A DNA stretch of 42,165 nt, from positions 1 through 42,165 of the forward strand of contig CAZVUR010000001.1 in the NCBI GenBank assembly GCA_964629385.1. Reading direction: 5' to 3'. A model generated the notes under the pieces. It was not told the DNA's origin and made no database searches. It worked only from the letters and a program-made list of their open reading frames with translations. Origin of the DNA: an uncultured Candidatus Saccharibacteria bacterium (GTDB lineage: Bacteria > Patescibacteriota > Saccharimonadia > Saccharimonadales > Saccharimonadaceae). Position numbers and translations under genes: made by a program. Numbering within the stretch: the stretch's first letter is position 1; each line of letters starts with the position of its first letter. Positions 8,501-41,156 of this stretch are shown here, piece after piece.

Positions 8501-8532
8501 TTGACAAATAATACAACTTATGCTAATATAAT
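8501..8532 (+). promoter_or_regulatory. Near-consensus sigma70 promoter P1 driving GC-rich cassette 1
   Basis: TTGACA (8501-8506), 17 nt, TAATAT (8524-8529) with TG at 8521-8522. An alternative TATAAT lies at 8527-8532. Confidence 0.65.
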
Positions 8533-8595
8533 ATTGATGTCCTAGCTTTGGAATCCGAGATTTCTCCACTCGACAAGAGGAGGCGAGGAGTTAAC

Positions 8596-9039
8596 ATGAA
8601 CACGCAGACCCTGGTCGAGTTCGACCAGAGCCAGGCCCAGACCTACAACGCGCTCTACGTCGTGAAGCAGGCCGTTCTCGTTCCCGTCCCGGACGGCATC
8701 GAGACGGTCATCAACGCGGAGTGGGGCGAGGAGCAGAAGTTCGTCGGTGCCTGGTACGGCATCTACGTCGACGGCGCGATCGTCTACGGCTCCGCCAAGA
8801 AGGAGTTCGACGACAGCCACGGCAAGACCGACGAGCTCGAGAACGGGTACTTCAAGGACACGCCCATCAGCGCGTACCAGTACCACGGCCCGACCGCACG
8901 AGTCCAGACCGTCCTCGCGGACGGCACCGTCGAGACCGGGAACACCATCTCGGACGGCGACTGGCTCGTGAAGTGGCCGGCCGGCGAGGTCGGAGTCCTG
9001 AAGGACGACAACTTCCGCAAGCGCTACCAGGTCAACTGA
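8596..9039 (+). CDS. GC-rich foreign ORF 1a, hypothetical protein (147 aa)
   Basis: ATG at 8596 lies 5 nt after GAGGAG. G/C-dominated third codon positions. The C-terminal DGDWLVKWPAGEVGVL is weakly reminiscent of small phage-type PGDYG-like proteins (unverified). Confidence 0.7.
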   Translation: MNTQTLVEFDQSQAQTYNALYVVKQAVLVPVPDGIETVINAEWGEEQKFVGAWYGIYVDGAIVYGSAKKEFDDSHGKTDELENGYFKDTPISAYQYHGPTARVQTVLADGTVETGNTISDGDWLVKWPAGEVGVLKDDNFRKRYQVN

Positions 9040-9044
9040 TCCAC

Positions 9045-9185
9045 ATGAGGCGCAGGCTGAGGAGGATCAAGCACGGGATCTTCGGACACCCCCGCGAGGA
9101 CATGATCTTCGGCGACATGGTCGAAGGCAACACCTGCACGTCGTGTGGGTGGAACTTCAAGCGGGCCGACATCACCGTGGGCTGA
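9045..9185 (+). CDS. GC-rich foreign small ORF 1b (46 aa, CxxC)
   Basis: ATG lies 5 nt after the ORF 1a stop. Same G/C-rich third-position bias. Sequence MRRRLRRIKHGIFGHPREDMIFGDMVEGNTCTSCGWNFKRADITVG. Below the 60-aa track cutoff as a separate ORF. Confidence 0.5.
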   Translation: MRRRLRRIKHGIFGHPREDMIFGDMVEGNTCTSCGWNFKRADITVG

Positions 9186-9194
9186 CAACAACCC

Positions 9195-9298
9195 CAACTA
9201 CACCCTCAGGAGAGGAGAGCACCCGAGCATGGGAGCCCCTCGAATGAGGGTGCTTCCATATCTAAATGTTCCTGAAACACATCCACCAGCCCCAGCCA
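9195..9298 (+). repeat. Cassette 3' module M, copy A (GC-rich hairpin half plus AT-rich linker plus core copy 1 at 9268-9298)
   Basis: CAACTACACCCTCA...GGGAGCCCCTCGAATGAGGGTGCTTCC-ATATCTAAAT-GTTCCTGAAACACATCCACCAGCCCCAGCCA. Aligns with copies at 10073 and 10627. Confidence 0.8.
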
Positions 9299-9363
9299 AG
9301 CTTAAGTATTATAAATAGGCCTTTTGGGTCTATTTTGTTATTATCGTTTTAGTGAAAAATTTA

Positions 9364-9495
9364 ATGAACAAAAAGATCGCAAATCAATCCAAGCGTAATA
9401 TTCTTTTCCTATACATATTATTTTTTGTTGGAGTTCTGATTTTTCTTTACGCAATTTTTGTGACATTGCGATACGTTCTTACTGAATCTTGGTAG
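9364..9495 (+). CDS. Small hydrophobic peptide (43 aa), native AT-rich composition
   Basis: MNKKIANQSKRNILFLYILFFVGVLIFLYAIFVTLRYVLTESW. One TM helix. The stop lies 5 nt before core copy 2. No clear RBS was seen. Confidence 0.35.
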   Translation: MNKKIANQSKRNILFLYILFFVGVLIFLYAIFVTLRYVLTESW

Positions 9496-9500
9496 TATTC

Positions 9501-9530
9501 TTCCTGAAACACATCCACTAGCCCCAGCCA
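9501..9530 (+). repeat. tRNA-3'-end-like core repeat, copy 2
   Basis: TTCCTGAAACACATCCACTAGCCCCAGCCA. It is followed by AAGACGCTTATGGTTTAAAT, which matches the trailer after copy 5 (10923-10941). Confidence 0.8.
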
Positions 9531-9578
9531 AGACGCTTATGGTTTAAATACTTCATTCGGAAGTCTATTTGTTTATGC

Positions 9579-9608
9579 TTGCAATTCCTTATTATTAAAC
9601 GGTAATCT
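9579..9608 (+). promoter_or_regulatory. Sigma70-like promoter P2 driving GC-rich cassette 2
   Basis: TTGCAA (9579-9584), 18 nt, TAATCT (9603-9608). The composition jump at ~9617 coincides with the predicted +1. Confidence 0.5.
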
Positions 9609-9645
9609 ATATTTACACGTTCCACACCGAGCTAAGGAGAGTGCG

Positions 9646-10089
9646 ATGGACGTGAGTATCAAACCAGCAGATAAGCAGGCGCGTGAGGCAGTCATCAAGG
9701 CGCGCGAAGACAAGGAGGCTGCTCGGGTTGCGCGCAAAGAGAAGCGCAAGAAGCGGAAGGCCGAGAAGCGAGACCCGGTCGTTGCCAAACGGCTCAGGCG
9801 GCGGATCGAGAAAGAAGTTCTCGCTGATCTTCTCACCGAGAAGCGGTGCTACCTCAATGCTCAGCCTTCGACCGGCCAGTATGTGATCGACACGCGAATT
9901 CGCTACGGCTGGACGCTGAAGCGGAAGTGGCGTTACGACAAAGACACCGTCGAGCGAATCTTCCTGGAAGTGCTCGCAAGTCACAACGGTTTCGAGCACA
10001 AGGCCGACTACCGTTGTCAGGGCCCGTGGTGGTGTGTCCGAATCGATGTTCAGTACACCCTGCTGGACCACTCAAGTACACCCTCATGA
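9646..10089 (+). CDS. GC-rich foreign ORF 2, hypothetical (147 aa): Lys/Arg/Glu-rich N-terminal half, Trp/Cys-containing C-terminal domain
   Basis: ATG lies 6 nt after AAGGAGAG. G/C-rich third positions. The last codons and the TGA lie inside module M copy B. Confidence 0.7.
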   Translation: MDVSIKPADKQAREAVIKAREDKEAARVARKEKRKKRKAEKRDPVVAKRLRRRIEKEVLADLLTEKRCYLNAQPSTGQYVIDTRIRYGWTLKRKWRYDKDTVERIFLEVLASHNGFEHKADYRCQGPWWCVRIDVQYTLLDHSSTPS

Positions 10090-10172
10090 GAGGAGACGCG
10101 ACCAAGTTGGGAGCCCCTCGAATGAGGGTGCTTCCATATCTAAATGTTCCTGAAACACATCCACTATCCCCA
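10073..10172 (+). repeat. Cassette 3' module M, copy B (core copy 3 at 10146-10172, truncated before GCCA)
   Basis: Identical to copy A over GGGAGCCCCTCGAATGAGGGTGCTTCCATATCTAAATGTTCCTGAAACACATCCAC. Runs directly into promoter P3. Confidence 0.8.
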
Positions 10173-10188
10173 ATTGTGGGTTAGATGA

Positions 10189-10217
10189 TTGACATAATAT
10201 TATTTATTTGTTATAAT
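10189..10217 (+). promoter_or_regulatory. Consensus sigma70 promoter P3 driving GC-rich cassette 3
   Basis: TTGACA (10189-10194), 17 nt, TATAAT (10212-10217) with TG at 10209-10210. Confidence 0.75.
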
Positions 10218-10267
10218 ATATTTAAGACGTGACTTTCACGTCCGAACCGAGTGAGAAAGGCATTCAG

Positions 10268-10615
10268 ATGCCGAAGTACGCGTTCAACAGCAAGAAGATT
10301 GTCGACCTCGTCGACGAGGACGAGGACTTGGTCCGGATCCTGGACCAGAAGACGGTTCGGGCTGACAACGTCCAGATCAAGGGCTACCCGACCAAGATGG
10401 ACGGCCATCTCTACCCCGTCAACTTCGTGCTCACCACTTCGAGCTACTACTACGAGGTCTCCATCTACCTGGAGACCGCCGAGATCCAGAAGTGCGACAT
10501 CTCCAGCTCCAGCGTGATCGAGTCCGACGTGTTCACTGCGCTGGACGACTTCACCGAGAAGCTGATGGCAATCCTCGAGGAGGTCGAGTCCGCCGAGAAG
10601 ATCGCCGCCGTCTGA
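10268..10615 (+). CDS. GC-rich foreign ORF 3, acidic hypothetical protein (115 aa)
   Basis: ATG at 10268 lies after GAGAAAGG. 19 of the first 20 codons end in G/C (hand count). The track ORF begins at an upstream GTG (10229) that lacks an RBS. Confidence 0.7.
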   Translation: MPKYAFNSKKIVDLVDEDEDLVRILDQKTVRADNVQIKGYPTKMDGHLYPVNFVLTTSSYYYEVSIYLETAEIQKCDISSSSVIESDVFTALDDFTEKLMAILEEVESAEKIAAV

Positions 10616-10626
10616 ATCAGCTCGCT

Positions 10627-10733
10627 CAACTACACCCTCATGAAAGGACAAGCGCCTGCAACAATGGAGCTCCTCGATTGAGGGTGCTTCCATTTGTAAA
10701 TTCTTCCTGAAACACATCCACTAACCCCAGCCA
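10627..10733 (+). repeat. Cassette 3' module M, copy C (core copy 4 at 10704-10733)
   Basis: CAACTACACCCTCATGAAAGGA...GGAGCTCCTCGATTGAGGGTGCTTCC-ATTTGTAAATTC-TTCCTGAAACACATCCACTAACCCCAGCCA. The hairpin arms are preserved through C-to-T (G:U) changes. Confidence 0.8.
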
Positions 10734-10734
10734 T

Positions 10735-10768
10735 AGAAAAAGACTGAGCATCTGCTCGGTCTTTTTCT
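10735..10768. terminator. Strong bidirectional-looking hairpin terminator
   Basis: AGAAAAAGACTGAGC-atct-GCTCGGTCTTTTTCT, a ~15 bp stem flanked by an A-run and a T-run. Confidence 0.65.
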
Positions 10769-10769
10769 A

Positions 10770-10904
10770 TAACTCGGGCCGGGACTACGAGCCCCCGATG
10801 CTTTTGCAAAGCAAAAGTCGGGGAGTTCGGCGTAGCGCAGCGATGATAAGAAAGCACCGAAGGTATTTTCTTATCAAGCAAGCGGAGGAGGCCTCATGGC
10901 AGAT
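10770..10904 (+). other. GC-rich structured non-coding segment abutting the tRNA-Gln 3'-end repeat (probable element-side arm of an att junction)
   Basis: No credible ORF. Hairpins CCCCGA..GCTTTTGC-aaa-GCAAAAG..TCGGGG and GATAAGAAA-12 nt-TTTCTTATC. Confidence 0.4.
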
Positions 10905-10922
10905 ATCCCTCCACCCCAGCCA
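10905..10922 (+). repeat. Exact 18-nt direct repeat of the tRNA-Gln 3' end (core copy 5, putative attR)
   Basis: ATCCCTCCACCCCAGCCA is identical to 1070-1087. Confidence 0.85.
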
Positions 10923-10936
10923 AGATGCTTATGTTT

Positions 10937-10962
10937 AAAATGACGAGAAATCGTCATTTTTT
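10937..10962 (+). terminator. Intrinsic terminator, likely the displaced original tRNA trailer terminator
   Basis: AAAATGACGA-gaaa-TCGTCATTTT followed by TT. Confidence 0.6.
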
Positions 10963-10971
10963 ATTGCTAAA

Positions 10972-11388
10972 ATGATAAGTATGAAATCAGTCGCTAAGCT
11001 TTTAATCAAGAATGGTAATGAGTTTTTAATGATGTACAGGAGTGATCATCCAACCTTTGGTATTGACCCTGATCTACCTGGCGGAACAGTGGAAGGAAGC
11101 GAGACCGTACTTCAAACCATGCTGAGAGAAGTCTACGAGGAGATCGGTGTAGTAGTTGAATCAAGTAAAGCTAGTGAAATATTCTCAGGTAACGACTATT
11201 CGGCACATGGGACTTACTATTCTCTGTTTATTACAGAGGTCGAGGACAAACCAGAGATACGCATGAGCTGGGAGCACTCATCGTATGAGTGGCTCAAGGA
11301 GTCGGAGTTTATAGAAAAGGCGGCTAGCGCAAAAGATACCTATATGCACATGGTTAGTGAGGTTCTAGCGTCGTATTCAATGTCATAA
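10972..11388 (+). CDS. NUDIX hydrolase
   Basis: Nudix box GGTVEGSETVLQTMLREVYEEIGV. Native composition. The start may be the ATG at 10981. Confidence 0.8.
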   Translation: MISMKSVAKLLIKNGNEFLMMYRSDHPTFGIDPDLPGGTVEGSETVLQTMLREVYEEIGVVVESSKASEIFSGNDYSAHGTYYSLFITEVEDKPEIRMSWEHSSYEWLKESEFIEKAASAKDTYMHMVSEVLASYSMS

Positions 11389-11390
11389 TA

Positions 11391-11420
11391 TTCCTGAAAC
11401 ACATCCACTAGTTCCAGCCA
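11391..11420 (+). repeat. tRNA-3'-end-like core repeat, copy 6
   Basis: TTCCTGAAACACATCCACTAGTTCCAGCCA begins 2 nt after the NUDIX stop codon. Confidence 0.75.
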
Positions 11421-11435
11421 CGCTAAAGCATTACA

Positions 11436-11469
11436 AGTAAGTGCCAGAGAAATCCGGCACTTACTATTT
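11436..11469. terminator. Hairpin terminator between the convergent NUDIX and hsp20 genes
   Basis: AGTAAGTGCC-10 nt-GGCACTTACT followed by ATTT. Confidence 0.5.
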
Positions 11470-11477
11470 AGCGCAGC

Positions 11478-11807
11478 TTAGCTTTCAATAGCAATCTGCT
11501 TTGGCTTTGGTAGTTCTTTAAACTGGATAGATACTTTCAGAACACCATCTTTCATCTTAGCCTTAATAGATTCTTCATCTGCAGCTTCTGGCAAGCGAAT
11601 GCTGCGGTAAAAGCTTGAAGAGCTTTCGCGCACAATATACTTTTTGTCTTTATCCTTTTCTTTCTCATGTCGCTCGGCACGAATAACCAAGTTTCCTTTG
11701 TCAACATTAATAGTTACGTCTTTTTGATCAAAATTAGGTAAATGTGCTTCGACATGAAGTTCTTTGTCGTCTTTTGACGTATAAACATCTGTTGCTGGCA
11801 GTTGCAT
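11478..11807 (-). CDS. Hsp20/alpha-crystallin small heat-shock protein. The coding region probably extends upstream to ~11888-11900.
   Basis: Alpha-crystallin domain (VDKGNLVIRAERH...FYRSIRLP...DGVLKVSI). The in-frame upstream sequence encodes KFDPFAEIQALQKQFFSDDWF, typical of an Hsp20 N-terminus, and has no ATG. Confidence 0.8.
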   Translation of the reverse strand: MQLPATDVYTSKDDKELHVEAHLPNFDQKDVTINVDKGNLVIRAERHEKEKDKDKKYIVRESSSSFYRSIRLPEAADEESIKAKMKDGVLKVSIQFKELPKPKQIAIES

Positions 11808-11968
11808 TGTACGACCCGGCGAAAACCAATCGTCTGAAAAGAATTGTTTTTGTAAGGCTTGGATTTCCGCAAACGGATCAAATTTAATTAAGCTACTCGT
11901 CGTAACCTCCTTTCATTTGATTGTTAGTGCGAAAAGGATAAACCTTTTCTATTTCCGTTATAGCAAAA

Positions 11969-11995
11969 TTAGCACTCTCATGTCAAGAGTGCTAA
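11969..11995 (-). promoter_or_regulatory. CIRCE element (HrcA operator) upstream of hsp20
   Basis: TTAGCACTC-tcatgtcaa-GAGTGCTAA, a perfect match to the CIRCE consensus TTAGCACTC-N9-GAGTGCTAA. Confidence 0.85.
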
Positions 11996-12177
11996 TCAAA
12001 GTATGGAATTTGCCTGCTTCACCTGTGATGTACAGTTCGTTATAACGATGTGATGATTATATATTTTGTAACTGTGCTAATATTATTGCGTTTTAGTTTA
12101 ATTACCATAACTTGCTGAACCCAAAGCAACAAGCATGTATTGCGTATAGCAATTTTTAGCGCATAATTAAGCCATAC

Positions 12178-14160: not shown

Positions 14161-14179
14161 TTTTGCTACAATTAATCAC

Positions 14180-14767
14180 GTGAATCCGAGCTCGCAAACA
14201 TTCATGAAGTTACCGCTCTGGGTATATATCATAGGCTGGATAGCGTTTTGCTATTTATTCATAACGATGATTGGATTTACGCCAGCAGCAATTAATAACC
14301 CAGTAGTCGCCGGTATGTACTTAATTGATTTTGGCGTGCATGAGGTTTCACATATACTTGCCTCTGCATTCCCGCCGATTATTACTGCTGCTGCTGGCTC
14401 ACTAGGCGAGGTATCGTTTACGATTCTGTTATTCATAGCAGTACTCCGGTCAAAATCTTATTTTGCCGTCGTTTTTGCTGGGTTGTGGGTTATGCTAGGG
14501 TTCTTAAGCTTTGGCACATACGTTGCCGATGCACAGGCCCAAGCACTGCCACTTATAAGCATGTCCGAAACGGCCAAGCACGACTGGAACTTTGTATTGT
14601 CTCAATTAGGCTGGCTTGAGTACTGCACCATACTAGGCAACATAATCAATGGCATTAGCATCATGATTGGTGTAGCCAGTCTACTTTTTGGCTTATTCTT
14701 GCTTTATAAAAAGATTCAGCGCTTAATACAAGCTCGTTCTTTGCAATCAAAAACTCGCCTCCAGTAG
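14180..14767 (+). CDS. Polytopic membrane protein, hypothetical
   Basis: Hydrophobic ORF of 195 aa. The track start is a GTG, and an ATG at 14204 is an alternative start. Confidence 0.5.
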   Translation: MNPSSQTFMKLPLWVYIIGWIAFCYLFITMIGFTPAAINNPVVAGMYLIDFGVHEVSHILASAFPPIITAAAGSLGEVSFTILLFIAVLRSKSYFAVVFAGLWVMLGFLSFGTYVADAQAQALPLISMSETAKHDWNFVLSQLGWLEYCTILGNIINGISIMIGVASLLFGLFLLYKKIQRLIQARSLQSKTRLQ

Positions 14768-14797
14768 AAGCGAGTCATTGATTATGCAGGAAAAAGG

Positions 14798-15118: not shown

Positions 15119-15138
15119 GATATTGTCTCCTTATATCC

Positions 15139-23652: not shown

Positions 23653-23681
23653 TTGACACATTGTTTATTTAGCGGTAAAAT
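23653..23681 (+). promoter_or_regulatory. Sigma70 promoter P4 driving GC-rich unit 4
   Basis: TTGACA (23653-23658), 17 nt, TAAAAT (23676-23681). It starts 4 nt after the helicase stop codon. Confidence 0.7.
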
Positions 23682-23772
23682 ACTAGTGATTTTGAGAGTT
23701 GAGGCTCGTATTCTGTGCTGTACAATTTGAGGTAAAGCGTAGTATACGCGCCTCCTGTCAAAATCGAACTTT

Positions 23773-24316
23773 GACAGGATGGTGCCTTAGTGCGAACGGG
23801 CAGGGATCCGAGGACTCGTAACATTGTTCTCGCAGAAGATTCATTCTCTGTCCGTTCGACCAAACCTCCGGGCGTGGTGGGGCCCGAGACCCATTGCGCC
23901 CGGAGCCAAGTGCCCAGGCGGGCACGGTGCAAAACGAGGAGGGAGCAGCCGTCACACGCTGACAATTCTCGATGGAGGAACACCGTGTCCGCCTGTGGCC
24001 CATGCGAATGGCTACATGGCAGTGCTCCTTGTATCCGGGACTTCCGGAGCAAGCGTTCAATATACGACACCTTGAGAGGAGGTGATCGCATGGCAACCAC
24101 CGAGGAGACCAGGCAGGCCATCATGGCCGTCTCCAACGGCCAGGCCAGCAGGGAGCAGCAGGAGATCGCAAGGCGCGCGGCTCAGCAGGCTGGCTCCATG
24201 GGCAACAGTGCCCGGGAGGCCTTCAAGGGCAAGAAGTGAGCCAGCGAGGGCGATCATCTTCGCAGTGGGGGCGGGCTTACCCAGCCGCCCCCACCCGAGA
24301 CTGGTACCATCCTGTC
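23773..24316 (+). other. GC-rich cargo of unit 4, enclosed by a 14-bp long-range helix
   Basis: GACAGGATGGTGCC (23773-23786) is complementary to GGTACCATCCTGTC (24303-24316) with one G:U. It contains a ~300-nt structured leader plus a small ORF. Confidence 0.6.
24090..24239 (+). CDS. GC-rich foreign small ORF 4 (49 aa)
   Basis: ATG lies 5-6 nt after GAGAGGAGGTG. Sequence MATTEETRQAIMAVSNGQASREQQEIARRAAQQAGSMGNSAREAFKGKK with G/C-rich third positions. The in-frame upstream stretch from 23790 looks non-coding. Confidence 0.55.
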   Translation: MATTEETRQAIMAVSNGQASREQQEIARRAAQQAGSMGNSAREAFKGKK

Positions 24317-24365
24317 CGTCTCACATTACACATGAATTATTCGTGTGCAGCGTGAGACGTTTTTA
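24317..24365 (+). terminator. Intrinsic terminator of unit 4
   Basis: CGTCTCAC...GTGAGACG followed by TTTTT. The left arm GTCTCACATT is shared with the unit 5 terminator. Confidence 0.7.
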
Positions 24366-24394
24366 TTGACGATTCAAACTAAAAGTGATAAAAT
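24366..24394 (+). promoter_or_regulatory. Sigma70 promoter P5 driving GC-rich unit 5
   Basis: TTGACG (24366-24371), 17 nt, TAAAAT (24389-24394) with TG at 24386-24387. Confidence 0.7.
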
Positions 24395-24650
24395 CTATTT
24401 TACTTGGTCGAGTAGGCAACGAACATATCGAGTGATATGTTTTGAACGCGGTTTGTTCGTTGTCTATTCCTAAGTGTTTTTTAACAGGAATAGCGTACAA
24501 GAATTCACCGGGGTATCCCCGTTGCCTTGGTGAATGGGGTATCATTCTTCGCAGCGGCTTACGCAGTCTGCTCCGATAGTGGTCTGCAATGGCTTCTAGA
24601 GTGGAGAACGATACAGGGTGCTGAGTCCGGCTCGGCAAAGCACCCACCCG

Positions 24651-24723
24651 GGGGCGTTGGCGCAGATGGTAGCGCGCTCACCTAATACGTGAGAGGTCGC
24701 AGGTTCGAGCCCTGTGCGTCCCA
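24651..24723 (+). tRNA. GC-rich tRNA with anticodon AAU (formally Ile), CC but not CCA encoded
   Basis: Hand-folded canonical cloverleaf: GGGGCGT/GCGTCCC acceptor (two G:U), U8, GCGC/GCGC D-stem with G18G19, CTCAC/GTGAG anticodon stem, loop CTAATAC, T-loop TTCGAGC, discriminator A. Confidence 0.7.
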
Positions 24724-24795
24724 CCGGAACAAGCAGGCCGCAAAAGGAGTCGGCCGTCGTGCTTTCCTCGCTCGGTATGCACACTTGTTCCATCC

Positions 24796-24834
24796 GGGAC
24801 CGGAGGCTTCGCACATACCGTTGCCTCCGGTCCC
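24796..24834 (+). other. 12-bp perfect GC hairpin downstream of the GC-rich tRNA (high-GC-style terminator or processing hairpin)
   Basis: GGGACCGGAGGC-15 nt-GCCTCCGGTCCC with no T-run. Confidence 0.5.
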
Positions 24835-24985
24835 GCCCCACCCAAAGCTTCTCATTTATCGGCGCCAACCACCTGTTTAGTGGCGCGACGATAACTAGGA
24901 GGGGAGACCCCGGGCCCTTCTCTGTTTGCCGCTGCGCGGGAACGGTCCGGGGAACTTCCCTTGCTCTAAGACGCTATTCCTGTGT

Positions 24986-25036
24986 CTCACATTGTTTAAG
25001 AGTATCTCGTAGACAATGTGAGGCGTTTTATTTTTG
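24986..25036 (+). terminator. Intrinsic terminator of unit 5
   Basis: CTCACATTGT-17 nt-ACAATGTGAG followed by GCGTTTTATTTTT. Confidence 0.7.
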
Positions 25037-33936: not shown

Positions 33937-36837
33937 CTAATAAATTAGGAAGCCGGAACCAGTGCCACTCGTTGTTGCGGGTACCTGCAAAATAGGCCAA
34001 GGTGTGGGGTAAGTGGGGTTACCTTCGCCTGAAATCTGATAATAATCATTTTTACCCCAACAGTAGCCCCTGTTATCGGAGGCAATAGCACATGTGGTGT
34101 ACCTGCTTGCAGAAATACTCTTATACGTACCGCCTGCAGGCACGGCACCTTGGTTAACAAGTACGGCAGTACGACGCGTTGTTACCGTATTATCTCCAAG
34201 TTGGTTTACGTCATTTAAACCCCAACAATAGGCCTTATCTTCAGAACTGATTGTGCAGGTGTAGCTTATACCTAAAGTAATGCTTTTATAGGTGGCACCA
34301 ACAGGCATAGCACCACGCACAACGGCTACAGGTATGGTGCGTGTTGTGGTCGTGTTATCACCTAGCTGGCCGCTACCATTATTACCCCAACAATACGCTT
34401 TATCATTGGAACCAATAGCGCAGGTATGATTATTGCCAGTTGCGATGCTCTTGAAGGTCACGCCGGCGGGTATAGCGCCTTGCACAACTGCCACTGGGGC
34501 AGGATTAGTGTTTAAATAGGTAGTGTTGCCACCTTCGCCAAAGGTATTGTCGCCCCAGCAGTAGGCTTTGTTGTCGGAGCCAATTGCGCAGGTATTAATA
34601 CCGCCTGCAGAAATACTTTTGAAGGTTACACCGGCTGGCATGTCACCTTGGGCAACGGCTACAGGTGTCAGTTCTGGTGGCGCAAATATACTGCCATTAT
34701 TTCCTAGTTGTCCATTACTGTTATTACCCCAACAATAGGCTTTGTCGTTTGAGCCAATAGCGCAGGTATGACTACCCCCTGCAGAAATACTTTTGAATGT
34801 TACACCGGCTGGCATGGCACCTTGCGCAACGGCGGTAGGCGTAGGCTGGCTAGTGGTTGTGTTATCTCCCAGGACCCCGTAGCTGTTATATCCCCAGCAA
34901 TACGCTTTGTCGTTAGAGCCAATGCCGCAGGTATGATTACCGGTAGCAGACGTGCTAACTGACTTAAACGTCACGCCGGCCGGCATGGCGCCTTGCACAA
35001 CCGGGAATGGAGTGGCTGACGGACCTGAAACACCAGAGGTAGATATGCCGTTTCCAAGATAGCCGCCTTGATTACTACCCCAACAATAGGCTTTATTATC
35101 CGAAACTGTGGCACATGATTGAGTACTGCCCGCAGAAATACTAGTGAGCGTTACACTAGTTGGAATAACACCAGTAGGAACCGTAACTGGAACTGATCGA
35201 CTAGGCGTCATAGCACCATCGCCGAGCTGCGCGCTATCGTCTGCACCCCAGCAATAAATGTTAGAATCACTACCAAGAACGCAAGTATGGCTATAGCCAG
35301 CCTTAATGCTATCAAATGTTACTCCCGCGGGTATGCTTCCTTGGCTAGTAGCTACTGGAGTTAGGCGCTGCGTTTGAGTGCTGTCGCCTAGCTGCCCGTA
35401 AGTATTATCGCCCCAGCAATATAGCATGTTATTGGAGCCAATGCCGCAACTATGTAACTGGCCAGCCGCGATACCCTTAAAGGTAGAACCGGCTGGCATG
35501 GCACCTTGAGCAACTGCAACAGGAGTGAGGCGTTGGGTAGTCGTATTATCGCCCAGCTGCCCAGAAGAATTACTACCCCAGCAATAGGCTTTGTCGTTAG
35601 ATCCAATACCGCAGGTATGATACGAATTTGTGGTAATACTTTTGAAGGTAGTGCCGGCTGGCATGGCTCCTTGAGCGACCGCAACGGGGGTATAGGCCGT
35701 TCCAGTGCTATTATTTCCGAGCTGCCCATTACTGTTAAAACCCCAGCAGTAGGCTTTGTCGTTAGAGCCAATACCGCAGACATAGCCGTTTTCTGCAGCA
35801 GCTATACTTTTGAACGTAGAACCAATTGGCATGGCTCCCCTAGAAACAGCTACGGGTGTATAGCTGGCAGTTGTTGTATTATTACCAAACTGCGCATAGG
35901 TATTATCGCCCCAGCAATAGGCTTTGTCGTTTGAGCCAAGTGCGCAGGTAAAGCTGCTACCAACCGAGATACTTTTGAACGTTACACCGGCTGGGATGGC
36001 ACCTTGGGCGACAGCCACTGGCGTACTGCTGGTAGTAGTAGTGCCATCACCCAGCTGCCCAGAAGAATTACTACCCCAGCAATAGGCTTTGTTGTCGGAG
36101 CCAATAAGACAAGCATGTGAACCACCTATTGAAATGCTGCTAGCCGTTACGTCAGCTGGCATTGCGCCCCTAGAAACAGCAACAGGGATAAGCGATTTAG
36201 CTATGGTGTTGTCAAATTTAGCCGCACCCCAACAATAAACGTTATTTGTTAAATCGAGTGCACAAGTACCATAGTAACCTGCGCTTAATGACCCGGCTTT
36301 GAATGTCATCCAAGCCGAACTCGAACCCGAAATACTTATGCTAACTTTAACAGACGAATTCGTTTGCATTACCACGTCACCGCTCGTCGTTCGCACCTGC
36401 CGTACGATGCCTTGTGAATTAAAATCTGTCGGCGTGCCGCCGCTATCACTGACTATTCCAACACTAAACGCTGTTCTATAATTTCCACTCTTTAATACAT
36501 AGCATGCTACATCAGTGCTTGATGAAGGACAGCTGATGTTTTCAGTCCCCGTACAATCGGTGTTAGGTTTGAGGGGTTTTGCATCCGTCCATGTAATGCT
36601 TCCACCGTTCTTTTTCATACACGCATTAGCCATAGCAATTCCAGACTTAGCAGCGGAGCGGCCGATTTGGTCAACGTATTGGTTGCGAATACCAGCAGAG
36701 ATGGAGCTAACGCCAGTCAGGGCAGCGAGCAGTACGACCATCATGACGACGGAGGCAACAAGAACAGTGGGTAAAGCAAAGCCTTCTGACTTTGTTTTAC
36801 CCTTATAACGATGTGCTACTTGTCTTGTCCAACCCAT
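33937..36837 (-). CDS. Pilin-like (prepilin-type N-terminus) surface protein with ~14 RCC1-like beta-propeller repeats (966 aa)
   Basis: N-terminal KSEGFALPTVLVASVVMMVVLLAAL resembles a class III signal/minor pilin lacking E5. There are 14 YCWG motifs spaced ~52-56 aa apart (GSNDKAYCWGxNxxGQLG...TPVAV). Confidence 0.75.
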   Translation of the reverse strand: MGWTRQVAHRYKGKTKSEGFALPTVLVASVVMMVVLLAALTGVSSISAGIRNQYVDQIGRSAAKSGIAMANACMKKNGGSITWTDAKPLKPNTDCTGTENISCPSSSTDVACYVLKSGNYRTAFSVGIVSDSGGTPTDFNSQGIVRQVRTTSGDVVMQTNSSVKVSISISGSSSAWMTFKAGSLSAGYYGTCALDLTNNVYCWGAAKFDNTIAKSLIPVAVSRGAMPADVTASSISIGGSHACLIGSDNKAYCWGSNSSGQLGDGTTTTSSTPVAVAQGAIPAGVTFKSISVGSSFTCALGSNDKAYCWGDNTYAQFGNNTTTASYTPVAVSRGAMPIGSTFKSIAAAENGYVCGIGSNDKAYCWGFNSNGQLGNNSTGTAYTPVAVAQGAMPAGTTFKSITTNSYHTCGIGSNDKAYCWGSNSSGQLGDNTTTQRLTPVAVAQGAMPAGSTFKGIAAGQLHSCGIGSNNMLYCWGDNTYGQLGDSTQTQRLTPVATSQGSIPAGVTFDSIKAGYSHTCVLGSDSNIYCWGADDSAQLGDGAMTPSRSVPVTVPTGVIPTSVTLTSISAGSTQSCATVSDNKAYCWGSNQGGYLGNGISTSGVSGPSATPFPVVQGAMPAGVTFKSVSTSATGNHTCGIGSNDKAYCWGYNSYGVLGDNTTTSQPTPTAVAQGAMPAGVTFKSISAGGSHTCAIGSNDKAYCWGNNSNGQLGNNGSIFAPPELTPVAVAQGDMPAGVTFKSISAGGINTCAIGSDNKAYCWGDNTFGEGGNTTYLNTNPAPVAVVQGAIPAGVTFKSIATGNNHTCAIGSNDKAYCWGNNGSGQLGDNTTTTRTIPVAVVRGAMPVGATYKSITLGISYTCTISSEDKAYCWGLNDVNQLGDNTVTTRRTAVLVNQGAVPAGGTYKSISASRYTTCAIASDNRGYCWGKNDYYQISGEGNPTYPTPWPILQVPATTSGTGSGFLIY

Positions 36838-36960
36838 ACATGCTTTCGAACGACATTTTTATTACTTATGGTAATAATAGCACCGCACATGGTATATGCC
36901 TAGTAGAAAATTTAGTGTATAATGTATAGTAACGAACTAAATCAAAGGGGAATAAAAGCA

Positions 36961-37233
36961 ATGAGCGACTCATCATCACCTGTCACTATCTACACCACAA
37001 CGTTTTGTGCATTTTGCGCCACCGAAAAGCAGTGGATGGACAAGCTTGGCGTTAAATACGTTGCCAAGAACATTGAAGAAGACGAGGCTGCCCGCGATGA
37101 GCTACTAGAAAAAGTTGGTGGCAACTTCCAGGGCGTTCCAGTTACCGATATCGCTGGTGAAATGATTCTGGGCTTCAACCGCCCCGCACTGCAAGACGCG
37201 CTCGAAAAGAACAAACTCGTTCCAGCAAGCTAA
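36961..37233 (+). CDS. Glutaredoxin/NrdH-like redoxin
   Basis: VTIYTTTFCAFCATEKQWM (CxxC) and a ...GVPVT... thioredoxin fold. The start is chosen at MSDSS after AAAGGGGA. Confidence 0.75.
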   Translation: MSDSSSPVTIYTTTFCAFCATEKQWMDKLGVKYVAKNIEEDEAARDELLEKVGGNFQGVPVTDIAGEMILGFNRPALQDALEKNKLVPAS

Positions 37234-37254
37234 TCATTCTATAAACGAGCTCTG

Positions 37255-37288
37255 ATACTCACGCAATTAATTGTGTGAGTATTTTTTG
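37255..37288 (+). terminator. Intrinsic terminator after the glutaredoxin-like gene
   Basis: ATACTCACGC-aattaatt-GTGTGAGTAT followed by TTTTT. Confidence 0.7.
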
Positions 37289-37342
37289 CTACTTAAAAGC
37301 CTTACGCTTGATTTTAGAATCCAGCGTGGGCATACTCTGTGT

Positions 37343-38890
37343 ATGACAGAGCAGCTTCCTACTCATAACGATTACGGTACTAATTTTTATGGCAAGCATA
37401 TCGATATCCAGTTGCTCGATGATAAAACGCTAACCGAACAACTTGAAACGCGCGATAGAATTCGCACGTACATCGACGTCGAGGATGAAGATATTCTGCC
37501 TTACCCAGCACGGCAGGTAAAGCTCGAGTCATATCATGATATAGGGCTTGATACATTACGAATTCAAGGCGAAGTAAGCTTTCGCCCAACCGACCTCCAG
37601 AATATGCCAGACACTTGGCCAGGCATGTTTCTTCAAGAACTTCAAAACAGCTTTCAAAATTATGGTTACGAGATTGCTTATCAAGAACATGATATGGCTG
37701 CACTCTACATTTCACTCGACGTAACCCATTCAATTCGTATTGCACTTTCTTCTACGGCCGTAGAATGTGCGATTGACGTGGAGCTACTCACTACTACTGA
37801 AATTGAAAATGCTACACACAATCCATTACCAGAACCATATGCTGATAGGGATTTAACCTATTTAGAAAAGTTTCGACATATTCTTACTGCATTAGGTGTT
37901 ACACTTGATAGCTTGCGTGAATATTATGGAGCTCCGCCTATGTATCACGGAAGGTATACCCTTAAGCAGTATCAGGCATCTAAAGAACTGGTTTTGCCAT
38001 CGCCTACAGTGCAAGTTAGCGGTCAGCCACATGCAAGCGAAATGACAGCAGAAACCCAAGCCGTAAATTATGGTCTCGAATCATTCGGAGGCGCAAAACA
38101 TGCAAAAAATCGTTTATACGAATTTGCGGCAATAATGAACAATCCAGATGAAGCAAGTGAATTCGATATTCAACGCAGCCACTTTTTACTATATGGGCCG
38201 CCCGGAACCGGTAAGACAACGCTTATAACCGCCTTTGCTAACGAAATAGGTGCAACGCTTTGGGCCGTTAGCTCCACTGATTTAGTTGATATGTGGGTGG
38301 GCAATTCAGGTAAAAATGTCGTTAAGACTTTCGAGAAAGCCAAGAAGGTAGCTGGTAAGGTAGTCGTATTTTTTGACGAGTTCGACGCCCTTGCTCAAAA
38401 AGGTGGTAGAGGTGGCGGGGAGCGATCAGATGTAAGAAAAATTCTTAATACACAACTCGAGGATATTGCAAAAAATTACCCTAACATCATTGTAGCGGCG
38501 GCTACCAATGCGGATCTTGATGATCTTGAGCCTTCGCTCATTCGTTCAGGCCGCATAGAGCCGATTGGTATGCCGGTACCAACCGAAGAAGAGCGTTACG
38601 ACGTACTTGGCACTGTGCTGTTCAAATCAATTCAACGTACTATGCAAGATAAAGAATTGGTATATGACGAAAAAAGTATGTTTCAGCCTTCTGAGACATT
38701 TGTGCTATACGACCAGTCTATTGATATAGATGAGCTTGTGCGCCATACGGACGGGATGACAGGAGCCGACTTCGAAGTTATTTTAGAGCGGGCTCGCAAA
38801 AAACATTTTATGCGCTTCAAGGAAACTGGGGAGAAAAATCCTGTAACCCAACAAGATTTACTCCGCGAAATCAGAGAATTTGGCCGCTAG
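37343..38890 (+). CDS. AAA+ ATPase (classic clade, FtsH/CDC48-like module) with an unrecognised ~270-aa N-terminal domain
   Basis: LLYGPPGTGKTTL, VVFFDEFDAL and ATNADLDDLEPSLIRSGRIE. The start is chosen at MTEQL because the track start at 37271 lies inside the upstream terminator. Confidence 0.75.
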   Translation: MTEQLPTHNDYGTNFYGKHIDIQLLDDKTLTEQLETRDRIRTYIDVEDEDILPYPARQVKLESYHDIGLDTLRIQGEVSFRPTDLQNMPDTWPGMFLQELQNSFQNYGYEIAYQEHDMAALYISLDVTHSIRIALSSTAVECAIDVELLTTTEIENATHNPLPEPYADRDLTYLEKFRHILTALGVTLDSLREYYGAPPMYHGRYTLKQYQASKELVLPSPTVQVSGQPHASEMTAETQAVNYGLESFGGAKHAKNRLYEFAAIMNNPDEASEFDIQRSHFLLYGPPGTGKTTLITAFANEIGATLWAVSSTDLVDMWVGNSGKNVVKTFEKAKKVAGKVVVFFDEFDALAQKGGRGGGERSDVRKILNTQLEDIAKNYPNIIVAAATNADLDDLEPSLIRSGRIEPIGMPVPTEEERYDVLGTVLFKSIQRTMQDKELVYDEKSMFQPSETFVLYDQSIDIDELVRHTDGMTGADFEVILERARKKHFMRFKETGEKNPVTQQDLLREIREFGR

Positions 38891-40608
38891 GCGCCAATTT
38901 TAATTACTTCGCCTTCTATAGCTTTTCGAAAATAGTCATCATGGCTTACATACAGTATCGCGCCGCTGTACTTTTTTAGTGCCGTTTCAAGTTCTTCGAT
39001 GCTTGGTAAATCCAGGTGATTGGTTGGCTCGTCCAAAATAAGCAGTTGCGGATCGTTGGCAAGCATGGCGATTACCTGCAACCGTGCTTTTTGGCCGCCT
39101 GAAAGCTTTTCTACAGGTATATGGCCGTCGGTTTCGGTAAATAGATAGTCGTGCATCAGCCCACGGATTTTTGTTTCGTTAATTTGCAAATTGCGATCTA
39201 AATAGGTTCGCTCGATAGCATCCTTCAGCGGCAAGTCAAAATAATCTGGGGATACCTCTTGCTCGTATACACCTATACGGACCTTTGAATCGAGCGACAG
39301 TTCGCCGTGGAATACGGTAATCGCTGATGAAGCAGTCGCATCGTCTTGTGAGTTCGCTGGCCCCGTTGGAGCGCTGCGAACAACACGCGAACGAATAAGA
39401 TGATGCGACTTCTGATTCTCTAGCAACTTCTTTATAAACGTACTTTTACCAGCACCGTTACGGCCCCGTAGCTCTACTGCTTCGCCTTCACGCAAATCAA
39501 TATTTATGCCGCTAAACAGGGGAGTATCGTAACCCAAGCTCACATTGGCCGCCTTTACCAGCACATGACTTGAACGTGACGATTCATCTTTGATGTTCAT
39601 TTTGATATTACGCGCTTTGAATTTAGCATATTGGCCAGCTACTTTGTAATTCAAATTTTCAGCCGATTCGCGGTCAATCCAAAAAGTTGGCTTTTCTTTG
39701 GCCTGAAGCTCAGCCAATTCTTTACGCGATTCTTGCTCTAACCGCTTGAACTTCTGGATCGTTTGCGGATTACGCGATTTTTCTTTAAGGCGCTGGTAAT
39801 CAATTACTTTTTGCTTCAAGTTCACGATTCGCTTTTCGATCAGCTCGAATTCGTTCATGGCCGTACCGGTTGAGTGGGCATTTTGCTTTAAATAGGCATC
39901 GTAATTACCTTTAAAGCTCTGCGAACCGCCGTCTTTTAATTCTACGATCCTATCGACTTGCTGCAGCACATCACGGTCGTGCGTAATAATCAGCATGGCT
40001 TCGGGTGCTTGTTTCATCCAATCGATGAACTGCTTTTTGGCTACGTAATCCATGTGGTTTGTCGGCTCGTCGATCAGTGCCAAATGGGCCTGCGCATGCA
40101 TGACTTTTACCACTTCGACGAGTCGCTTTTGACCACCAGATAAAGAGGCGAGGGGACGATGAGCGATGTCGGGCAGTTGGAATGTTTCCAGCTCGCGCTC
40201 GATATCGCTTTCTATTTGGTAAAACCCTTTATCGTCAAACCGTTGCAGTGCCTCGGTGTATTCAGAAATTTTCTTCATGTCGTCGCCCATGGTCATGGGG
40301 TATGTTTCTACGATATGGCTTAGCTGGCTGTATTCAGGCAAGCCGGCTAACACATATTGCAGCACGGTCTGCTCGTTGGTGCCATGATGCTCCTGCGCTG
40401 TCGCTACAACGGTCGTGCCGCGTTTAAAAATAACCTCGCCGGTATAATCCGTATCAATTCCCGCCAGCATGCCAAATAGGGTACTTTTACCCACACCGTT
40501 GCGGCCAATCACCCCAACCTTCTCGCCGTCATCCACCGAGAATTTGACATTCGTCATCAGGACCTTAGGCCCAAACGACTTTTCGGTAATAGAAATATCG
40601 GCAATCAT
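38887..40608 (-). CDS. ABC-F family ATPase (two ABC domains, no TM domain)
   Basis: Two Walker A motifs (GRNGVGKST, GRNGAGKST), two LSGGQK signatures and an inter-domain charged linker. Confidence 0.9.
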   Translation of the reverse strand: MIADISITEKSFGPKVLMTNVKFSVDDGEKVGVIGRNGVGKSTLFGMLAGIDTDYTGEVIFKRGTTVVATAQEHHGTNEQTVLQYVLAGLPEYSQLSHIVETYPMTMGDDMKKISEYTEALQRFDDKGFYQIESDIERELETFQLPDIAHRPLASLSGGQKRLVEVVKVMHAQAHLALIDEPTNHMDYVAKKQFIDWMKQAPEAMLIITHDRDVLQQVDRIVELKDGGSQSFKGNYDAYLKQNAHSTGTAMNEFELIEKRIVNLKQKVIDYQRLKEKSRNPQTIQKFKRLEQESRKELAELQAKEKPTFWIDRESAENLNYKVAGQYAKFKARNIKMNIKDESSRSSHVLVKAANVSLGYDTPLFSGINIDLREGEAVELRGRNGAGKSTFIKKLLENQKSHHLIRSRVVRSAPTGPANSQDDATASSAITVFHGELSLDSKVRIGVYEQEVSPDYFDLPLKDAIERTYLDRNLQINETKIRGLMHDYLFTETDGHIPVEKLSGGQKARLQVIAMLANDPQLLILDEPTNHLDLPSIEELETALKKYSGAILYVSHDDYFRKAIEGEVIKIGA

Positions 40609-40646
40609 AAGATGCTATTGTAACAGAGGTGGCCCAGGATTGATAG

Positions 40647-40675
40647 TTGACATTTTTAATTAAATTTGCTATAAT
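40647..40675 (+). promoter_or_regulatory. Consensus sigma70 promoter P6 driving GC-rich unit 6
   Basis: TTGACA (40647-40652), 17 nt, TATAAT (40670-40675) with TG at 40667-40668. Confidence 0.75.
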
Positions 40676-40749
40676 ATAATTATACCTGTCATCGCACCCG
40701 CATGCAGGCCGATCAATCTGTCTTCGCTGAAGACAGAAGGGAGCACCAA

Positions 40750-41001
40750 ATGAACCGCATCGTCAACGTCGCGACCGTCGTGGTCGGAGGCATCGTCGCC
40801 ATCAAGATCGCGAAGGAGGTCAAGGACTTCATCGTGTTCGACGCCGGCTCGACCGAGAACCGCCGCTACCGGAAGTTCTACAAGGAGATCTCCCGGGCGG
40901 CCAACAAGATGAAGAACGTGTCGGTGGAAGAGCTGATGGAGCTGCTGCGTGGTGAGGAGCTCACGCCCCAGGTGGCCGGCTCCGACCGCAACGCCATGTA
41001 G
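40750..41001 (+). CDS. GC-rich foreign ORF 6 (83 aa), N-terminal TM helix
   Basis: ATG lies 6 nt after AAGGGAG. Sequence MNRIVNVATVVVGGIVAIKIAKEV... with G/C-rich third positions. The upstream ATG at 40702 lies in a leader hairpin without an RBS. Confidence 0.65.
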   Translation: MNRIVNVATVVVGGIVAIKIAKEVKDFIVFDAGSTENRRYRKFYKEISRAANKMKNVSVEELMELLRGEELTPQVAGSDRNAM

Positions 41002-41042
41002 TCCGCACCTGTCCGACCTGATGATTGCCCGCGACCCATCAT

Positions 41043-41114
41043 GCCGCCGAAGACAGCCACCGAAGTCAAGCCAACAAGCTCCTTCAGGTCCGCTTCGGCG
41101 GCTGTTTTCGTTTT
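41043..41114 (+). terminator. Terminator of unit 6
   Basis: GCCGCCGAAG (41043-41052) pairs with CTTCGGCGGC (41093-41102). An inner CCGC-ttcg-GCGG hairpin is present, followed by TGTTTTCGTTTT. Confidence 0.65.
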
Positions 41115-41127
41115 ATATAAAATATTG

Positions 41128-41156
41128 TTGACAGCATACATAGGACGCAGTATCAT
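41128..41156 (+). promoter_or_regulatory. Sigma70 promoter P7 driving unit 7
   Basis: TTGACA (41128-41133), 17 nt, TATCAT (41151-41156). Confidence 0.65.

Follow-up and report, generated by a model that had tools for sequence, protein, structure and literature searches.

Among described systems, those closest to the elements reported here are the cassette arrays of integrons, especially the sedentary chromosomal ones, the morons of temperate phages, the islands found at tRNA genes and, for some of the elements, the non-coding RNAs of retrons and the large ornate RNAs GOLLD and ROOL, which are located near tRNAs. Morons, which Juhala et al. and Hendrix et al. are said to have described in 2000, are reportedly autonomous promoter-open reading frame (ORF)-terminator units of deviant base composition. 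The DNA under study is a 42,165-nt stretch, referred to as the window, which has 46.8% GC overall and is shown to be chromosome of a Saccharibacteria (TM7) bacterium. It contains ordinary bacterial genes (copper ATPase, F-type ATP synthase, DEAD-box helicase, AddA-like helicase-nuclease, ABC-F protein) together with seven short GC-rich units, namely cassettes 1-3 at locus 1 and units 4-7 at loci 2 and 3. The analysis shows that locus 1 is a lineage-wide, integron-like array of single-gene cassettes downstream of tRNA-Gln. The array was not found described in the literature searched on Saccharibacteria, and this tRNA-Gln-anchored cassette system is apparently undescribed there.

As in integrons, the cassettes are tandem, carry a single gene each, share one orientation and measure 0.3-1.7 kb; each is closed by a conserved repeat resembling a recombination site, the array is fixed at one chromosomal site, cassette content varies between related genomes exactly at the repeats, and many ORFs are of unknown function. 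The array differs from integrons in that no IntI was found and a tRNA gene, instead of attI, serves as anchor. Moreover, the repeat is a non-palindromic copy, about 30 nt long, of a tRNA 3' end, rather than an attC hairpin with R''/R' cores, while the palindromic module which does occur at 3' ends is limited to the GC-rich cassettes and lacks an attC core. The GC-rich cassettes of the window, and some others, have their own promoters instead of depending on a common Pc promoter, and terminator-like hairpins follow repeat copies 1, 2 and 4. With tRNA-associated islands the array shares the location downstream of a tRNA gene, the direct repeats of the tRNA 3' end (an exact 18-mer, and a duplication in locus L067) and the deviant cargo, but its cargo consists of single genes of about 0.5 kb, compared with islands of 10-100 kb, no integrase gene is found at the tRNA-proximal end, and the repeat is a diverged variant common to dozens of species, not the tRNA end proper to each species. 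Finally, the GC-rich units are moron-like in being self-contained and deviant in GC content, each having its own sigma-70 promoter (near consensus except for P2), a small ORF or two without known function and, at the 3' end, a hairpin or terminator. Unlike morons, they lie between housekeeping genes of a cellular chromosome and not among prophage genes, and those of locus 1 carry the tRNA-like direct repeats and the conserved 3' stem-loop module. The flanks of the units consist of copper-resistance genes, HSP20, AddA-like helicase, Dus, the ATP synthase operon and an ABC-F protein, and no phage structural genes were detected around them, either in a Pfam scan of the window ORFs or in precomputed Pfam calls of identical contigs.

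The direct repeat bounding the cassettes, about 30 nt long, imitates the 3' end of tRNA-Gln, TTCCTGAAACACATCCACTAG-CCCCAGCCA. The 21-mer GAAACACATCCACTAGCCCCA, part of a motif (TTCCTGAAACACATCCACTAGCCCCAGCCA) similar to that end, is present in six copies between 8472 and 11416 when as many as 3 mismatches are allowed, the chance expectation being 0.01; in addition, the last 18 nt of tRNA-Gln (ATCCCTCCACCCCAGCCA, 1070-1087) reappear exactly at 10905-10922. The repeat 18-mer matches 69 loci in a species-level genome collection; about half of them belong to metagenome-assembled genomes of Candidatus Saccharibacteria/Saccharimonadales, and the remaining half are single, chance-like matches. Across 36 Saccharibacteria loci 69 repeat copies were counted, always on one strand per locus, and in the 20 loci with tRNA-Gln in view all 36 copies lie downstream of it and on its strand. 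Neighbouring copies are spaced 295-1692 nt, with about one gene per interval. In the loci which were read, the motif lies a few bases past a stop codon and is often followed by a terminator-like hairpin and then by the next promoter or the next gene; in L067, the tRNA 3' end is duplicated directly before a GC-rich cassette. The majority of array cassettes are native in composition, GC-rich ones accounting for 6 of 38 inter-repeat cassettes.

Comparison between species revealed how cassettes are inherited. Contigs from the species of the window are nearly all 100% identical and so offer no strain polymorphism to compare. Locus L102, syntenic with the window, lacks exactly the 1.2 kb between the repeat copies at 10152 and 11396, i.e. 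c3, a structured RNA and NUDIX, and its c2 cassette directly adjoins HSP20; copy 3 forms the left border of the missing segment. Together with the duplicated tRNA end of L067, these observations favour insertion at this site. Orthologues of c2 (L102, L104) keep the order repeat-terminator-promoter-ORF-module-repeat, and c2 and the native HSP20 gene of the same two genomes show similar synonymous divergence, with identities at fourfold sites of 0.55 and 0.60, respectively. For c1a, 30 homologues were collected, with 38-100% identity, and all the named ones come from Saccharibacteria. In L080 (79% identity in c1a) promoter spacer, 5' untranslated region (UTR), c1a, c1b and module are all kept, and in L081 (50% identity) promoter spacer and UTR are still recognisable, the spacer sequence 'aacttatgc' being common to the window, L080 and L081. 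A stem-loop in the c1 5' UTR of the window, L080, L081 and L086 has a constant loop, ACTC(G/A)ACAA, and stems which vary among the four species but are complementary in all of them (TCTCC/GGAGG, TCACC/GGTGA, CTCCG/CGGAG, TTCCC/GGGAA); this covariation suggests a putative regulatory or protein-binding RNA element.

These comparisons show that the whole cassette, with its AT-rich promoter and 5' UTR, is the unit of inheritance and of gain and loss. An earlier sequence-only reading of this DNA had put forward, as speculation, that GC-rich cargo is captured behind resident promoters, at about +1. The proposal is contradicted by the co-inheritance of promoter, 5' UTR, ORFs and 3' module across species, at 50-83% protein identity, and cassettes are gained and lost at the tRNA-Gln-like repeats instead. 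The locus 1 units do occupy a real cassette-accumulating site. The same comparisons bear on a further suggestion, that foreign RNAs were reverse-transcribed and integrated just downstream of resident promoters. The inserts are transcript-shaped, running from a 5' UTR to a 3' hairpin, the 3' module with the tRNA-like ...CCA end recalls the 3' priming sites which some reverse transcriptases use, and the closing stems of units 4 and 5, described below, are similar to retron a1/a2 repeats. Against such a route, neither a reverse transcriptase nor an integrase was found in the window, no reverse transcriptase was found beside any cassette examined, and no retro-type signature was seen; promoter and UTR have evolved jointly with the cargo across deep divergence, the cassette borders are repeats lying upstream of the promoter, and the tRNA-like repeat also follows ordinary AT-rich genes. 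RNA-mediated capture is thus already weakened, and can hardly be credited.

Five of the six GC-rich array cassettes carry a stem-loop module of about 60 nt, ACACCCTCAnGAGAGGAG...GGGAGCCCCTCGAnTGAGGGTGCTTCCAT. A pattern scan of a metagenome collection retrieved it from six contigs, one of them from the species of the window itself; in these contigs, it lies at the 3' end of a GC-rich stretch of 400-600 nt within a contig of lower GC content. In total 13 instances were found, following mutually unrelated cargo, including a GNAT-like protein, with a GC content at third codon positions (GC3) of 0.65-0.90. Two mutually exclusive folds of the module are possible: a long hairpin ACACCCTCA/TGAGGGTG, or a small 5' hairpin followed by a 3' hairpin GGGAGCCCCTC/GAGGGTGCTTCC, and on these predicted pairings the module looks like a four-segment switch. 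The 3' hairpin is supported by two compensatory pairs among 12 aligned sequences. The module is separable from the tRNA-like repeat, since L080 and L085-L088 hold it without the repeat. A conserved small ORF within module or repeat was considered and rejected, as frames and stop codons vary between copies.

With regard to mechanism, cassettes would be gained and lost through site-specific recombination, with the shared CCCCAGCCA core as the likely crossover point; a site carried by the cassette would recombine with the 3' end of tRNA-Gln or with a repeat already in place. Some observations weigh against it. No recombinase was identified, and no integrase domain was detected when the window ORFs were scanned with Pfam, nor among the Pfam calls precomputed for identical contigs. 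The sole candidate in the window is a truncated ORF of 327 aa, similar to large serine recombinases (XisF-like, E = 0.003 and 5e-4) in their C-terminal zinc-ribbon/coiled-coil portion only and with no catalytic domain; it is species-specific, being absent from the loci of other species examined. The repeat pattern could also reflect deletions by homologous recombination, and not a site-specific system. In the window, a copper-resistance block (1999-8302), containing genes for a CsoR-like repressor, a Cu-ATPase, three DUF305 proteins and a cytochrome b5, separates tRNA-Gln from the array.

Within the window, stretches of at least 400 nt with a GC content of about 0.60 coincide with the seven units only, and the GC3 of the island ORFs is 0.70-0.95, compared with 0.31-0.51 in 17 native genes. 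The islands were sought in independent assemblies, and for each locus at least 8-14 contigs, obtained from separate samples, contain them with 100% identity; they are, therefore, no assembly artefact. Most of the same-species contigs (L001-L010, L084, L090-L101), which come from more than 10 samples and studies, are identical to the window at all three loci, the exceptions being L006 and L084, which differ from it by 1-3 bases. This near-identity suggests a population that is clonal or has spread very recently.

Sigma-70 promoters were searched in two ways, by our own scan and by a tool, with results in agreement. Near-consensus promoters had been claimed for all seven units; the claim stands for six, which score 10-12 out of 12 with a spacing of 17 nt, and fails for P2, which scores 7, while the extended TG of P1, P3, P5 and P6 was confirmed. 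Units are driven by six of the eight top-scoring sites of the window (hypergeometric P ~2e-5, with roughly 45 transcription-unit starts), but two or three native genes own equally strong sites, so that the statement that the best promoters all serve inserts is too strong. In other genomes, 3 of the 6 GC-rich cassettes have a site scoring at least 10 out of 12, as does 1 of the 32 remaining cassettes, which is modest support for the association. A counter-example is the GC-rich structured RNA at 10774-10922, which lacks a promoter of its own. The switch from AT- to GC-rich sequence falls about 3-10 nt past the predicted +1 in c1, c2, c3 and u6 and slightly further, at about +10-15, in u7; in u4 and u5 it is found at about +95, behind an AT-rich 5' hairpin. 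A hairpin closes the 3' end of each unit, as had been noted. As predicted from their sequence, the units are compositionally foreign-looking, self-contained and strongly promoted transcription units. The pattern is real and non-random, yet it is not a single process. A repeated process acting at all three loci is not borne out, as the scaffolds are unrelated, structured RNA makes up most of units 4, 5 and 7, and both u6 and c3 are ORFans; the seven units are heterogeneous, and they are not naked inserts placed behind existing promoters.

The six cargo ORFs gave no match in Pfam, NCBIfam or PADLOC, and PHROGs yielded only weak hits to c1a. The AlphaFold model of c1a is confident (predicted local distance difference test score 91) and all-beta, and its best Foldseek hit in the PDB (E = 0.3) gives no indication of function. 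A homologue of c1a with 54% identity, P0025, was found in two phage-like contigs (L108/L109, Logan SRR28640827 and SRR28640812), the only virus-side relative found for any cargo. These contigs have a uniform GC content of 63% and many small co-directional genes, with phage gp30.3-like, metallophosphoesterase and polynucleotide-kinase families (PHROG), and their DNA matches Mycobacterium and Gordonia phages only. P0025 adjoins a T4 gp30.3-like gene and genes for a metallophosphoesterase, a GmrSD_C-domain protein and a polynucleotide kinase. In a neighbour-joining tree it is placed outside the Saccharibacteria clade, and its composition fits its contig, whereas c1a in Saccharibacteria never fits its surroundings. 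This link to an actinophage-like contig is in keeping with cargo that originated in the realm of a high-GC host. Homologues of c1a also occur in contigs of uncertain taxonomy with 55-57% GC (L106/L107, L083); even there the gene stands out, with a GC3 of 0.94-0.95, that of the L106 neighbours being 0.69-0.78, and in L106 an AT-rich promoter-like stretch precedes the gene.

Polarised synonymous changes run mainly from GC to AT, with ratios to the reverse of 12:2 and 4:1 for c2 and of 9:1 for the c1a of L080. Because of this net flux, the high GC3 looks like a decaying relic and not a maintained adaptation; selection keeping GC3 high, as near-saturated sites had first been read, was weakened by it. 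The flux fits a pattern of slow amelioration, in which old foreign genes decay at different rates. Taken together, the best overall explanation, to which about an even chance is given, is a cassette array with old, ameliorating imports from viruses of high-GC hosts. The GC-rich bodies would have been imported long ago, viruses infecting high-GC Actinobacteria being the most probable source, and then domesticated into moron-like units which are now slowly ameliorating. Since cultivated Saccharibacteria are naturally competent, besides being epibionts of high-GC Actinobacteria, uptake of DNA is plausible (PMC10633639). The cassettes would be strongly transcribed by the sigma-70 polymerase of the cell, with the 5' and 3' stem-loops probably stabilising or regulating the mRNA; the cargo would be a leader with an ORF of 49 aa in unit 4 and tRNA-Ile(AAU) in unit 5. 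For the GC-rich members of locus 1, the best supported prediction is that of long-resident, phage-like, strongly expressed accessory genes.

Several points weigh against an import from viruses. A phage-side homologue exists for one of the six cargo ORFs only: a donor-type homologue of matching composition was found for c1a and none for c2, c3, u4 or u6. The c2 family comprises nine proteins, whose members with context lie in Saccharibacteria-type cassettes, while c3 and u6 are without homologues. When units and ORFs were compared by megablast, blastn and tblastn with 50,697 phages and 72,556 plasmids, only generic tRNA similarity and one weak hit to a Xanthomonas phage were returned, and scans of IMG/VR returned nothing specific. 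The phage-like contig has neither the 3' module nor the repeat, and the sharing of the module by unrelated cargo also counts against the import model. Lastly, the fourfold sites of c1a are near saturation and yet 82-91% GC in four of five sequences (64-69% in L081), and the synonymous changes in the lineage of the window are balanced, 2:2, which leaves room for some force keeping GC3 high.

The module could also have come from one donor lineage, as a repeated intergenic hairpin of a GC-rich phage or plasmid family carried in with each gene. It is itself GC-rich, every true instance examined follows GC-rich and mutually unrelated cargo, and its independence from the repeat in L080 and L085-L088 agrees with such a source. 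A single donor is nevertheless quite improbable, given that the module is absent from the phage-like contig with the c1a homologue, that its pattern gave only two chance-like hits in IMG/VR, and that blastn of the units did not find it in the 50,697 phage genomes.

Composition was evaluated by pooling the island ORFs, which have GC1/GC2 of 0.58/0.38 and a fraction of glycine, alanine, arginine and proline (GARP) of 0.25, compared with 0.56/0.41 and 0.25 for native genes. The native-like amino-acid composition was first taken to exclude a high-GC donor, a conclusion withdrawn after a 62%-GC actinophage, used as control, gave the same signature (GC1/GC2 0.63/0.41, GARP 0.28, with small coding sequences resembling the island ORFs); because the control is nearly identical, composition cannot discriminate origin. 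The similarity to native genes in GC1/GC2 and amino acids had favoured a reading in which the units are native, demands on the RNA itself (folding, shielding from AU-specific RNases, a long half-life for very high expression) impose the GC content, and the phage homologue was acquired from Saccharibacteria. Non-coding parts and UTRs are indeed GC-rich, with fold z of -4.5 to -8.8 relative to shuffles, the neighbouring element 10774-10922 is a native, conserved, GC-rich structured RNA, and all c1a and c2 members which could be checked, bar the one phage-like contig, are Saccharibacteria-type or unassigned, none being from Actinobacteria. The actinophage control, however, shares the signature, GC3 is only 0.44 in the DEAD-box helicase gene and 0.31 in that of HSP20, both equally strongly promoted, the net synonymous flux is from GC to AT, and the c1a homologue matches the surrounding composition in the phage-like contig and never in Saccharibacteria, all of which make a native origin unlikely.

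Selection for GC is also implied in a further alternative, that of payloads directed at the host, in which GC-rich transcripts or cassette DNA would be delivered into the actinobacterial host and expressed there; the direct repeats would play the part of T-DNA borders, or the tRNA-like 3' end would serve as a signal for export or stability. By analogy with the T-DNA of Agrobacterium, the cargo would be phage-derived host-takeover genes in host codons, delivered as RNA or as repeat-bordered DNA. The codons used are GCC, GGC, GTC, ACC, ATC, AAG and GAG, with CAG 24 times against no CAA; these, like CAG, are codons preferred in high-GC Actinobacteria. The GC richness extends across the whole transcript, excluding promoter and terminator T-tract, the fourfold sites of c1a remain GC-rich near saturation in most orthologues, and the c1 cassette of L080 adjoins tRNA-Ser and lies beside a cluster of type IV secretion system (T4SS) pilin genes. 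Cultivated Saccharibacteria live on Actinobacteria as epibionts (PMC10633639). If the alternative were true, translation in the host would be aided by the tRNA-Ile(AAU) unit with its strong promoter. The tRNA is, however, unfit for the codon usage of the island ORFs, where ATC dominates (32 times, against two for ATT), and the net GC-to-AT flux in three of four lineages speaks against maintained selection. In addition, a plain actinophage origin yields the same codon signature, no export signal, relaxase or nic site was found, and most cassettes in the same arrays are AT-rich and native in composition. Products aimed at a host, also suggested in the sequence-only reading, are accordingly disfavoured by flux and tRNA alike, and both the payload and its takeover version are very improbable.

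Structured RNA is a recurrent feature of the window, and the element at 10774-10922 is one case. It ends in the exact tRNA-Gln 3' end, has homologues in L031, L065, L047, L028 and L059, just downstream of tRNA-Gln in at least L031 and L047, and gives no Rfam match; its fold z is -5.5, with eight compensatory pairs across five species. Being clearly native and GC-rich by structure, it shows the same as is possible for units 4-7, whose GC excess may be partly due to RNA structure. Units 4, 5 and 7 are mainly highly structured RNAs, with fold z of -8.3 and -8.8 against shuffled sequence for units 4 and 5. In each of these two, a closing stem of 14 bp (GACAGGATGGTGCC/GGTACCATCCTGTC in unit 4) encloses GC-rich cargo of roughly 500 nt and is followed by a terminator beginning with GTCTCACATT. 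The stems differ in sequence between the units and keep complementarity within each, which is the behaviour of an RNA stem; they were also considered as terminal inverted repeats of a transposon, a possibility rejected on finding only ACAGGA in common. Units 4 and 5 appear to be paralogous RNA scaffolds of a 'closed-stem' type, a pair which differs in the GC-rich cargo.

Like retron RNAs (msr-msd, with a1/a2 repeats), GOLLD and ROOL, units 4 and 5 are promoter-driven and structured and have a long-range stem, and one of them embeds a tRNA. They differ in that neither the window nor the neighbourhoods retrieved contained a reverse transcriptase gene, that no Rfam match was obtained even at E up to 5, and that they are far longer than retron RNAs, about 640-680 nt, one of them having a translatable ORF with a strong Shine-Dalgarno sequence. 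Rfam searches over the three loci (gathering scores; E up to 5) yielded only two tRNAs and noise. Units 4 and 5 had no phage or plasmid match beyond generic tRNA similarity, and no homologues of units 4-7 were found among roughly 40 Saccharibacteria fragments. The anticodon AAU of the tRNA-Ile in unit 5 is unusual for bacteria; this tRNA is embedded in a GC-rich, structured cargo, about 480 nt long, which has a strong promoter of its own. Unit 7 ends in a 51-nt hairpin, 24 nt before the ATG of a hydrolase gene at 41454, and is probably the structured leader of that gene.

Saccharibacteria and other members of the candidate phyla radiation (CPR) live as obligate epibionts with tiny genomes, whose gene gain and host-interaction genes are largely unknown. 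The array acts phylum-wide like an integron without the defining parts of one, and includes a GC-rich subclass of cassettes, some with near-consensus promoters, and at least one cargo family shared with an actinophage-like virus, which at the sequence level suggests gene flow from the viruses of the host into the epibiont. Several undescribed conserved RNA elements were brought to light as well. If mobile, the cassettes would provide a handle on gene capture in CPR and a source of candidate host- or phage-interaction genes; natural transformation is a genetic tool now at hand for Saccharibacteria (PMC10633639). The features are collected in Table 1.

Table 1. Coordinates of the features identified in the window, in order of position. 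aa, amino acids; scores are given as matches to the 12 consensus positions, TG denoting the extended -10 motif.
Feature	Position	Strand	Remarks
Recombinase-like ORF, 327 aa	964-1947	-	antisense through tRNA-Gln
tRNA-Gln(UUG)	1013-1087	+	anchor
Junction repeat copy 0 (GTTCGAAACACGTCCACTAGCCCCA..CCA)	8466-8497	+	tRNA-Gln 3'-end mimic, abuts P1
P1	8501-8529	+	TTGACA-17-TGcTAATAT, 10/12 with TG
Cassette 1 body	8537-9259	+	62% GC
GC stretches of about 0.60, cassettes 1-3	8561-9260, 9621-10120, 10301-10680
c1 5'-UTR stem-loop	8563-8583	+	just upstream of c1a Shine-Dalgarno
c1a	8596-9039	+	147 aa, GC3 0.95
c1b	9045-9185	+	46 aa
c1 3' stem-loop module	9198-9259	+
Junction repeat copy 1	9268-9299	+	followed by intrinsic terminator 9313-9335
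AT-rich mini-cassette	9300-9499	+	native composition (30% GC)
Mini-cassette ORF, 43 aa	9364-9495	+	hydrophobic membrane peptide, MNKKIANQSKRNILFLYILFFVGVLIFLYAIFVTLRYVLTESW
Junction repeat copy 2	9500-9531	+	followed by terminator-like hairpin
Cassette 2	9579-10137	+	weak P2
P2	9579-9608	+	TTGCAA-18-TAATCT, 7/12, weak
c2	9646-10089	+	147 aa, GC3 0.70
c2 3' module	10076-10137	+
Junction repeat copy 3	10146-10172	+	abuts P3
Cassette 3	10189-10693	+	P3; 5' stem-loop at about +3
P3	10189-10217	+	12/12 with TG, 17-nt spacing
c3	10268-10615	+	115 aa, GC3 0.93, ORFan
c3 3' module	10630-10693	+
Junction repeat copy 4	10703-10734	+	followed by terminator-like hairpin ~10740-10770 (aaaaagac...gtcttttt)
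Structured RNA-like element	10774-10922	+	GC-rich, multi-branched, no own promoter
NUDIX cassette	10972-11421	+	native composition; ORF 10972-11388
Junction repeat copy 5	11390-11421	+	end of NUDIX cassette
Native promoter, HSP20	11986	-	11/12 with TG
Native promoter, DEAD-box helicase	16960		11/12 with TG
Unit 4	23653-24358	+	P4
P4	23653	+	11/12, 17-nt spacing
Unit 4 5' hairpin	23688-23765	+	AT-rich
Unit 4 closing stem	23773-23786 / 24303-24316		14 bp, encloses 63%-GC cargo
GC stretches of about 0.60, units 4-6	23781-24360, 24561-25000, 40701-41100
Unit 4 ORF, 49 aa	24090-24239	+	long leader, strong Shine-Dalgarno
Unit 4 terminator	24318-24358	+
Unit 5	24366-25024	+	P5, 5' hairpin; scaffold paralogous to unit 4
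P5	24366	+	10/12 with TG, 17-nt spacing
Unit 5 closing stem	24483-24496 / 24971-24983		AACAGGAATAGCGT/ACGCTATTCCTGT
tRNA-Ile(AAU)	24651-24725	+	in unit 5 cargo
Unit 5 terminator	24984-25024	+
Native promoter, probably atp operon	33918	-	10/12 with TG
Unit 6	40647-41114	+	P6, structured 5' UTR
P6	40647	+	12/12 with TG, 17-nt spacing
u6 ORF	40750-41001	+	83 aa, N-terminal hydrophobic stretch, GC3 0.95, ORFan
Unit 6 terminator hairpin	41044-41114	+	large
Unit 7	41128-41430	+	P7; structured RNA of ~270 nt, 56% GC
P7	41128	+	11/12, 17-nt spacing
GC-rich stretch, unit 7	41301-41440		shorter

Apart from these units, the window contains a gene for a 966-aa RCC1-repeat protein (33937-36837, minus strand), which is made up of imperfect tandem units of about 165 nt, corresponding to the repeat families D1-D8.

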